Source: Rhizodiscina lignyota
Taxonomy: Eukaryota
Length of the DNA stretch: 64,000 bases
Assembly (NCBI GenBank): GCA_010015805.1
Contig: ML978128.1
Span: 682,001 to 746,000, forward strand
Direction of reading: 5' to 3'
Shown here: piece after piece, positions 52,868 to 54,061 of the stretch
Layout of the letters: every line of letters starts with the position of its first letter
Numbering within the stretch: position 1 is the first letter of the stretch
Notes under the pieces: generated by a model
Databases searched by the model: none
What the model was told of the DNA's origin: nothing
Seen by the model: the letters and a program-made list of their open reading frames with translations, nothing else
Program-made: the position numbers and the translations under genes

Positions 52868-53031
52868 TCGCAAAAGAAAAAGAAATGGACGAAGACATCC
52901 CTTTGACTTGTGTCCTCAGTGATTTGACCCGTTTTCGCACTTTCTTACCCGTTCTTCTCCCAACCCGGCCTCCAGTTGATATCAGAGCGTCAAAAAAGAG
53001 TGGACAGTCGCAAAACAAAAAAATGGACGAA
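52868..53031. repeat. Imperfect ~25-bp direct repeat duplicating the tRNA 3' end and terminator
   Basis: TCGCAAAAGAAAAAGAAATGGACGAA (52868-52893) vs TCGCAAAACAAAAAAATGGACGAA (53008-53031). Confidence 0.55.
53017..53023 (-). terminator. Pol III oligo-T terminator of tRNA-Ala
   Basis: T7 run immediately after discriminator A73 on the minus strand. Confidence 0.8.
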
Positions 53032-53162
53032 TGGGGGATCGAACCCCAGACCTCCCGCAGGCTGGATTGCACTTGTGCAAAGCGGGCGCTCTACCACTGA
53101 GCTATACGCTGAGAGGGATGTAAGCAAAACGGCCATACGCTAGAATTTGGTGGACTCACCCC
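53024..53162 (-). tRNA. tRNA-Ala(UGC) with canonical 16-nt intron (53060-53075) and a putative 51-nt spliceosomal intron (53109-53159) between nt 3 and 4
   Basis: Spliced: GGGCGTA TA GCTCAGTGGTAGAGC G CCCGC TTTGCAT GCGGG AGGTC TGGGG TTCGATC CCCCA TTCGTCC A. Complete cloverleaf, A and B boxes, G3:U70 Ala determinant. Confidence 0.9.
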
Positions 53163-54061
53163 TTGAAAATCATGGCAACGGAAACTGTACTTTAAACATA
53201 TACCTACGAAGACGAAAAAATTTGAAACAATAATTCTCAGCAAAGCAAAAAAATTCATTCATCTTCTCGTGTGCCACAGGGCGAAAATTTTGCACCCACT
53301 ATTCCCGGTATTGCGCACAGTCTATTCGGCGTTCACTGCAAAACTCGGTATGCCGATGATTGGCGGCGGTCCCGACCGGCTGGTTCTAAATTCAGACACA
53401 TTTTCACAGCCCTGAGATTTGGTAGCTGGCGACGCAGGGCGGGTCCTGTAAGGGGCAACAGGTCACACATCAACAGTAAGCCTCGCACTTCCCCCGTCAG
53501 CTCTCCTTTCTAGCCTGCCTCTATCCTCTTTTCACACTCAGCATTAGTATGCCCAAAGACCCTAGCCACCTCGCAAGCTGCACTCTCTGGGTTTGATCCA
53601 CTGCGTGGCGGCGGGTCGCATGCTTATCCCCGACGTTGTATTCTGCAACTCAACGATTCATTCCTTTGCTGGACCTGGTTCAGTACAGACATTCAAGTGG
53701 TTGGCAGGCGACGATTGCGAACTGGCTGAAAATATCATTTGACTATTCGACTGTTTGGCGTGTATCCCTACGTTGGGTTGATCTTCCGGCCGGAATAAGC
53801 GTGTGGATCTCAGTCAGGTCTGATCGTCTTACAGCCGCAAGGAGGGAGTCAGCACCTTGAGGCTGACAGCCACAGTTGATTGGCCAAGACTTGATCCTAA
53901 AGGGTGAGTCTGTGGTAAGATGGAATATACGTGCGAAGGCTCTGGTGATTTCCTGCGCTGTTATTTAATGCCATGCTTCGCCCCTGCTTTCGACATGTAT
54001 CAACTTCCAGCTTTGATTTTCCGCTCTCATACAATCCCCTTTTGGTCAACTGCCTTTCAAA

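Follow-up and report, generated by a model that had tools for sequence, protein, structure and literature searches.

A predicted spliceosomal-type intron in the acceptor stem of a nuclear tRNA-Ala(UGC) gene of Rhizodiscina lignyota

A 64,000-nucleotide (nt) stretch of Rhizodiscina lignyota DNA (assembly GCA_010015805.1, contig ML978128.1, positions 682,001 to 746,000; hereafter the window) was analyzed with regard to a transfer RNA (tRNA) gene on its minus strand, tRNA-Ala(UGC). The acceptor stem of this gene is interrupted between nucleotides G3 and C4 by 51 nt that carry the signals of a GT-AG messenger RNA (mRNA) intron. The favored reading is that of a working nuclear tRNA-Ala(UGC) gene that may have acquired a U2-type GT-AG intron at this point and would depend on the spliceosome, and its probability is put at about one in two. 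The same even odds are given to the fuller statement that the sole tRNA-Ala(UGC) gene carries a young mRNA-type intron in addition to an endonuclease-type intron, and that its maturation would need the spliceosome. Spliceosomal introns in non-coding RNA genes are already known; a tRNA host would be new, and the function of this one is predicted from the sequence. All coordinates are those of the window, and the features are collected in Table 1.

Acceptor stem and 5' end of the gene

Read contiguously, the 5' strand of the tRNA body is C-A-G-C-G-T-A, so that C1:C72 and A2:C71 are unable to pair and the seven-pair acceptor stem is not formed. The non-standard pairs in the Rfam RF00005 match were exactly 1:72, 2:71, and 6:67. 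After in-silico removal of positions 53159-53109, ARAGORN drew a standard 7-base-pair (bp) acceptor stem with G1:C72, G2:C71, G3:U70, and A73; the stem drawn from the native sequence was shifted and distorted. The pair probabilities of acceptor pairs 1-5 rose from 0.0 in the native sequence to 0.32-0.35 without the insert. A preliminary description of this DNA had claimed that removing the insert rebuilds G1-C72 and G2-C71 and keeps G3:U70, and both the stem drawings and the pair probabilities bear this out; the coordinates and letters given there were all found in the sequence. U6:U67 (53106/53030), a point absent from that description, is also unpaired. Because U6:C67 is found in 8 of 8 related fungal genes (see below), a non-Watson-Crick 6:67 was regarded as a trait of this tRNA-Ala family.

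The D arm, the T arm, boxes A and B, and the anticodon loop TTTGCA (anticodon UGC) are all present, and so are the alanine identity features G3:U70, A73, and anticodon UGC. The RF00005 match contained an 18-nt insertion in the anticodon-loop region, where the gene has a canonical 16-nt tRNA intron whose nucleotides 5-9 pair with U33-A37. ARAGORN called 53110-53025 as tRNA-Cys(gca), with or without its intron option, because the 16-nt canonical intron was folded as a long variable arm. This call, together with the distorted stem, agrees with the earlier claim that standard finders mishandle the gene. Automated annotation of such genomes may mislabel Ala(UGC) genes in the way that ARAGORN does here.

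To compare the 5' end with that of uninterrupted genes, JGI metagenome contigs were scanned with the 33-nt 5' half of the tRNA body. Eight loci (L001-L008) were obtained, with about six distinct sequences among them, as L001, L005, and L008 are the same. GGG directly precedes the 33-mer in all eight of these fungal Ala(UGC) loci, and none has the insert. Their canonical intron is shorter, and their T arm is different but paired; since the T arm differs, the loci are not from close relatives. Prokaryote genome contigs were scanned with the 3' half and with the split pattern and gave 0 matches, as expected for that collection.

The upstream context belongs to GGG. The decile from -40 to -31 was the AT-richest, alone or tied, in all eight uninterrupted genes (9-10 of 10), and the same decile counted from the GGG of the window was also the AT-richest (9 of 10). 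TATA-like words in the metagenome genes, read from the printed flanks, start at about -42 to -36 from G1, the clearest one in L007 at -51. Counted from the tRNA body of the window, no TATA-like word reached more than 5 of 8. CAA|GGG, the junction seen in the window, also occurs in L006 and L007. Because a TATA-like element lies at a matching distance in the uninterrupted fungal genes, GGG was taken as the 5' end of the ancestral gene; and as the promoter-proximal features go with GGG, the 51 nt were taken as an insertion between G3 and C4 and not as a mutated 5' end. These sequence comparisons indicate that the gene is otherwise intact and that the 51 nt were truly inserted between its G3 and C4. 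They also confirm, against the eight metagenome genes, the earlier claim that the TATA-like element and CAA lie upstream of GGG and not of the tRNA body. In the available parts of the two sources, upstream TATA-type elements are described about 30 bp before tRNA genes in S. pombe and A. thaliana (PMC11547032), and an upstream TATA-type element is assumed to be part of the tRNA promoter in A. niger (PMC6108506).

Signals and origin of the 51-nt insert

The 5' splice site GTGAGT (53159-53154) directly follows GGG and fits GTRNGT. A branch-like GCTTAC (53125-53120, core CTTAC) has its A at 53121, 12 nt from the insert end. It runs into a pyrimidine tract (53120-53112), in which CATCCCTCTC follows GCTTAC, and then into the 3' splice site CAG (53111-53109), with no intervening AG between the branch A and CAG. 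The longest T run in the insert is four (53130-53127). The 7-mer AGCGTAT occurs twice on the minus strand, at 53141-53135 inside the insert (TAG|CGTAT) and at 53110-53104 at the junction (CAG|CGTAT). The internal copy may be left over from the way in which the insert arose, or it may offer a decoy 3' site at a distance of only 20 nt from the 5' site.

The insert was compared with mRNA introns of the window, which were predicted by frame joining of open reading frames (ORFs) and not from RNA. Short intron candidates were found in 7 of the 12 ORF pairs examined (46, 48, 66, 50, 49, 54, and 58 nt, the 58-nt one being second-ranked for its pair), and the other 5 pairs gave no convincing short intron. 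An eighth local intron (52 nt) came from a first intron finder, which returned 74 candidates, mostly false, and was replaced by the frame joining. The eight predicted introns are 46-66 nt long with a median of 51 nt, and the 51-nt insert lies within this range; the preliminary description had equated its size with that of the mRNA introns of the window, which is consistent with this median. Their branch A lies 9-18 nt before the 3' end, a range that includes the 12 nt of the insert. The branch motif is CTRAY in 6 of 8 and CTCAY in 2 of 8, and the insert has T at the R position. Its GTGAGT is closer to consensus than the 5' sites of most of the eight, and its CTTAC is weaker as a branch motif. 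One of the eight, the 48-nt intron, is additionally backed by continuity of the Pfam Beta-lactamase profile. This intron, in a beta-lactamase-family gene (55870-55823, minus strand), ends in AAG and not in YAG, and the 46-nt candidate intron of an arylesterase-like gene (52008-51963) likewise ends in AAG. Should both intron models hold, this organism would seem to accept AAG as a 3' site.

The insert signals were not placed by chance (probability below 1e-3). GGGGTRAGT has a single occurrence in the 64-kb window, both strands included (expected 0.64), and it is the one at the 5' end of the insert; the full signal arrangement was found in 0 of 100 window shuffles. A first-order Markov model built on the window was used to simulate 400,000 upstream regions; 342 of them had GGG+GTRNGT at a distance of 40-100 nt (8.6e-4), and 98 had GGG+GTRAGT (2.5e-4). 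The 5' signal together with Y-A at positions 1-2 was seen in 27 regions, and with the branch motif added in 3 (7.5e-6).

An assembly slip was also considered. Copy and read evidence was taken from one run (X1, contigs, ~34 Mb), possibly the assembly's own data, in which a comparison at 80% likeness gave five pieces. An 86-kb unitig of this run matches 53030-53240 without difference at a depth of 154. Because this read-derived unitig is identical, the insert does not appear to be an assembly slip, with the qualification that X1 may be the same reads as the assembly.

Other classes of insert were tried and rejected. A multicopy element or introner was rejected since the window holds no second copy (best extra match 13 nt, E 0.083), and since X1 shows single-copy depth over 53113-53240 and no other piece at 80% likeness or more. 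The flanking direct repeat is at most 1 nt, which rejects an introner-like target duplication. A tandem duplication was rejected as well: when the 31 nt that follow the internal CGTAT were compared by eye with the 5' part of the tRNA, 16 matched, but outside the seed only 9 of 23 did, too few for significance. The insert likely originated by a precise intron insertion, without target duplication or other copies. By analogy, the reverse-splicing route proposed for fungal U6 introns would fit such an origin.

Gene copies, predicted maturation, and competing explanations

A 39-nt X1 unitig over 53021-53059 has a depth of 331, about twice 154, and this segment was therefore taken to be present in two copies. 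Two 2.5-kb X1 unitigs belong to the second copy, which is a paralogous tRNA-Ala(CGC) gene. Its 5' end is uninterrupted (G1-G2-G3-C4). Its exons differ from those of the interrupted gene only at positions 1, 2, and 34, and its canonical intron differs at 7 of 16 positions. The changes at 53079 (nucleotide 34, UGC to CGC) and at 53068 (intron nucleotide 8) are compensatory, turning U:A into C:G. The near-identical exons and the compensatory change indicate that both genes have been under purifying selection since their divergence. Judged by its sequence, the interrupted gene is without damage other than the insert; the pattern of a decayed pseudogene, in which disabling changes are spread over the gene, was not seen, as the exons are intact beyond positions 1 and 2.

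The 86-kb unitig is unbranched through 53030-53240, so no other X1 gene shares a 31-mer with the 5' half. Besides the Ala(CGC) paralogue, run X1 contained no second gene with the same 3' half or with a 31-mer of the 5' half. Because the only other gene with the same body in X1 is Ala(CGC), the interrupted gene looks like the sole Ala(UGC) gene, which we consider likely but not proven for the genome. GCA, the predicted codon of this gene, makes up 193 of the 672 alanine codons counted across 16 long ORFs in the window and is the most used of them.

For such a gene, we infer the start site, the splicing, and the order of steps of the following pathway. TBP/TFIIIB would bind the TATA-like element at -40, and transcription would start about 5-12 nt before GGG. 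U1 would pair with GGG|GUGAGU, the branch would form at 53121, and a 51-nt lariat would be released as GGG is joined to C4. Splicing would thereby rebuild G1:C72 and G2:C71 beside G3:U70. If RNase P cuts at the contiguous "position 1", splicing would have to come first or not depend on that cut. The 16-nt intron at 37/38 would be taken out by the tRNA endonuclease and ligase, and RNase P, RNase Z, and CCA addition would complete the tRNA.

Several points weigh against a spliceosome-dependent gene. The branch motif CTTAC departs from CTRAY, which is a weak point, and the T4 run in the insert could weaken RNA polymerase III (Pol III) read-through. The displacement of box A by 51 nt from the upstream element is another weak point; box A lies ~70 nt from the presumed start instead of ~20. 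At type 2 promoters, TFIIIC guides the placement of TFIIIB; with box A displaced, TFIIIB guided in this way could start transcription inside the insert, and GGG would be lost. The 5' exon would be very short, about 8-13 nt, and uncapped. None of the 8 other fungal Ala(UGC) genes has the insert, which is thus specific to one lineage and may be of very recent origin. The comparison filters of X1 can leave records out, and the sole-gene status is drawn from that one run. A literature search, with most subscription journals outside it, returned no paper reporting a tRNA gene with a spliceosomal intron.

The main rival explanation is a recently disabled gene, in which a real and precise intron-like insertion is not removed productively and has left a young pseudogene. 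The Pol III start might be dictated by box A and fall inside the insert, or the spliceosome might not act on a short Pol III transcript; GCA would then be read by an inosine-34 tRNA-Ala(AGC) or by an undetected gene. Inosine-34 can read NNA codons, which counts for this explanation, as do the displaced box A, the suboptimal branch motif with the T4 run, and the restriction of the insert to this one gene among the fungal Ala(UGC) genes compared. It has to contend with exons that depart from those of the selected Ala(CGC) paralogue only at positions 1 and 2 and at the first anticodon base, with the lack of a second gene of the same sequence family in X1, and with GCA being the commonest alanine codon. 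Moreover, GTGAGT and CAG at the exact ends, with a branch-like motif at 12 nt and a pyrimidine tract between them, would not be expected of a random disabling insert. We regard a disabled gene as possible but on the whole unlikely.

Chance resemblance is improbable. Here the locus would be an ordinary tRNA pseudogene or low-quality copy with G1>C and G2>A, and the upstream GGG+GTGAGT would be coincidental. Only two bases separate the contiguous form from a normal 5' end, G3 is common to both readings, and rare coincidences surface when very many windows are scanned at a first stage, as was the case. The simulated frequencies given above nevertheless speak against it, both for the 5' signal at a suitable distance (GTRNGT or GTRAGT) and for the signal combined with Y-A and the branch motif. 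So does the TATA-like element with CAA at the right distance from GGG and not from the body, and it would itself be unlikely for two changes to fall only at positions 1-2 and none in the other ~70 exon positions. Very improbable is a repair of the 5' end, in which the contiguous transcript would be made, its two mismatched first nucleotides taken off, and the gap filled in against C72 and C71 through a Thg1-like 3'-5' polymerase. The mismatches do lie only at positions 1 and 2, where templated addition would give G1 and G2. Thg1-like 5' editing acts on mitochondrial tRNAs of amoebae and chytrids and is known for organellar tRNAs, whereas the canonical 37/38 intron and the Pol III terminator mark this gene as nuclear in type; repair would also fail to explain why GGG+GTGAGT lies upstream and why the TATA-like element is where it is. 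A further reading, in which the tRNA endonuclease would cut a non-canonical intron at 3/4 by way of a bulge-helix-bulge (BHB) motif, as in Archaea and the red alga Cyanidioschyzon, was rejected and is given hardly any credence. Position 3/4 is a known archaeal BHB intron site according to the available text of PMC4090602 and PMC3728597, and the gene already needs the endonuclease for its 37/38 intron. However, no BHB could be drawn, with 2 of 4 and 1 of 4 central pairs in the two registers and outer and inner helices of 0-1 bp. The fold of 53170-53020 was no better than that of shuffles (z = -0.77), and the GT..AG signals would be an unexplained coincidence.

Relation to known introns and setting of the gene

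In S. pombe, the spliceosome removes an intron from the Pol III-made RNA of the sole U6 gene, and unrelated, species-specific introns are found throughout fungal U6 genes and also in U1, U2, U5, and ribosomal RNA (rRNA) genes (PMC5855946). Reverse splicing is the proposed origin of such non-coding RNA introns (PMC5855946). Post-splicing spliceosomes stay catalytically active, which the available part of PMC11146597 discusses as a route to intron transposition. The tRNA insert resembles these U6, U1, U2, U5, and rRNA introns in being a candidate GT-AG intron with splice-site signals and a branch-like motif in a small structured non-coding RNA gene. As with U6, the host is a Pol III gene with box A, box B, and an upstream element, a TATA in U6 and a TATA-like one here; the insertion is lineage-specific, as are U6 introns, which have no conserved interior; and, as in S. 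pombe U6, it lies in the sole (for the tRNA gene, likely sole) gene copy. Unlike the small nuclear RNA (snRNA) hosts, a tRNA is no component of the spliceosome and has no reason to sit in its active site. The tRNA 5' exon, unlike that of U6, would comprise 3 nt of the mature RNA and a short leader, and the tRNA gene also has an endonuclease-type intron, so that two splicing systems would be needed. The splicing of S. pombe U6 is established, whereas that of the tRNA insert is a prediction.

The introns of tRNA genes offer a second comparison. To our knowledge, no ectopic tRNA introns are known in filamentous fungi, and none turned up in the literature search within the coverage stated above. 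BHB introns in archaeal tRNA genes and in nuclear ones of Cyanidioschyzon merolae (PMC4090602, PMC3728597, as far as their available text goes) are similar in that the 5' acceptor strand is broken after nucleotide 3 and finders mis-call the gene. In contrast to them, the insert lacks a BHB motif and has GT..AG ends, a branch-like motif, and a pyrimidine tract. Canonical SEN-removed 37/38 introns, as described in the available part of PMC10275265, have a counterpart in the 16-nt intron of this gene with its anticodon-intron pairing; the 51-nt insert, unlike this class, lies elsewhere in the gene and shows none of its features.

By the textbook division, tRNAs have endonuclease-type introns, and spliceosomal introns reside in RNA polymerase II transcripts plus a small number of snRNA and rRNA genes (PMC12530127, PMC10275265, in the parts available). 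Within those parts, the intron classes are described as unrelated (PMC12530127), and tRNA splicing is set in contrast to the spliceosome in the sole mention of the latter (PMC10275265). If the favored reading is true, this separation of intron classes would be broken, and a single 72-nt RNA would rely on the two splicing systems of eukaryotes. The substrate of the spliceosome would be a Pol III transcript whose 5' exon measures about ten nucleotides, and the decoding of the commonest alanine codon would be tied to splicing capacity. The gene would be a live case of an intron gained by an RNA that has nothing to do with the components of the spliceosome. It would show that any abundant RNA can gain an intron, which has a bearing on what determines intron insertion into non-coding RNAs, an open question raised for U1 and rRNA introns (PMC5855946). 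There would also be a blind spot in tRNA finding, by which an only Ala(UGC) gene is listed as something else or as a pseudogene.

The window has a G+C content of ~50%, and its genes are split by introns of roughly 50 nt, which gives it the appearance of filamentous ascomycete DNA. The interrupted gene is its one tRNA gene; the 1.8-kb spacer that contains it is bounded by an arylesterase-like gene on the minus strand and an F-box gene on the plus strand. Between 52300 and 54100, Rfam at E up to 5 gave no match besides the tRNA.

Table 1. Features of the interrupted tRNA-Ala(UGC) gene and its flanks
Feature	Position	Strand	Basis or remark
TATA-like element TATATGTTTAAAG, proposed TFIIIB/TBP site	53202-53190 (TATATGTTTAAA = 53202-53191)	minus	-40 to -28 from G1 of the micro-exon
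Predicted 5' leader and start region TGATTTTCAA	53172-53163	minus	ends in CAA (53165-53163) just before G1; start site predicted
Micro-exon GGG, tRNA nucleotides 1-3 (G1, G2, G3)	53162-53160	minus	sequence reading, in-silico removal, and comparison with uninterrupted genes
Spliceosomal-type insert, 51 nt	53159-53109	minus	between G3 and C4
tRNA body	53111-53024	minus	Rfam RF00005, 42.9 bits (gathering score 29)
tRNA nucleotides 4-37, including box A TAGCTCAGTGG (53104-53094) and anticodon TGC (53079-53077)	53108-53076	minus	Rfam match; 33-mer identical in 8 metagenome loci
Canonical 16-nt tRNA intron at 37/38	53075-53060	minus	Rfam anticodon-loop insertion
tRNA nucleotides 38-73, including box B GGTTCGATCCC (53045-53035), 3' acceptor strand TTCGTCC, and discriminator A73	53059-53024	minus	letter-for-letter equal in the Ala(CGC) paralogue
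T7 Pol III terminator	53023-53017	minus	immediately after A73

The 3' ends of the metagenome loci were also inspected. L001 and L003-L008 have no T run right after A73; a 30-40-nt trailer with a short hairpin-like palindrome comes before the first T5-T6 run. In L002 a T5 run follows after only ~7 nt past A73, and in the gene of the window the T7 run follows at once.

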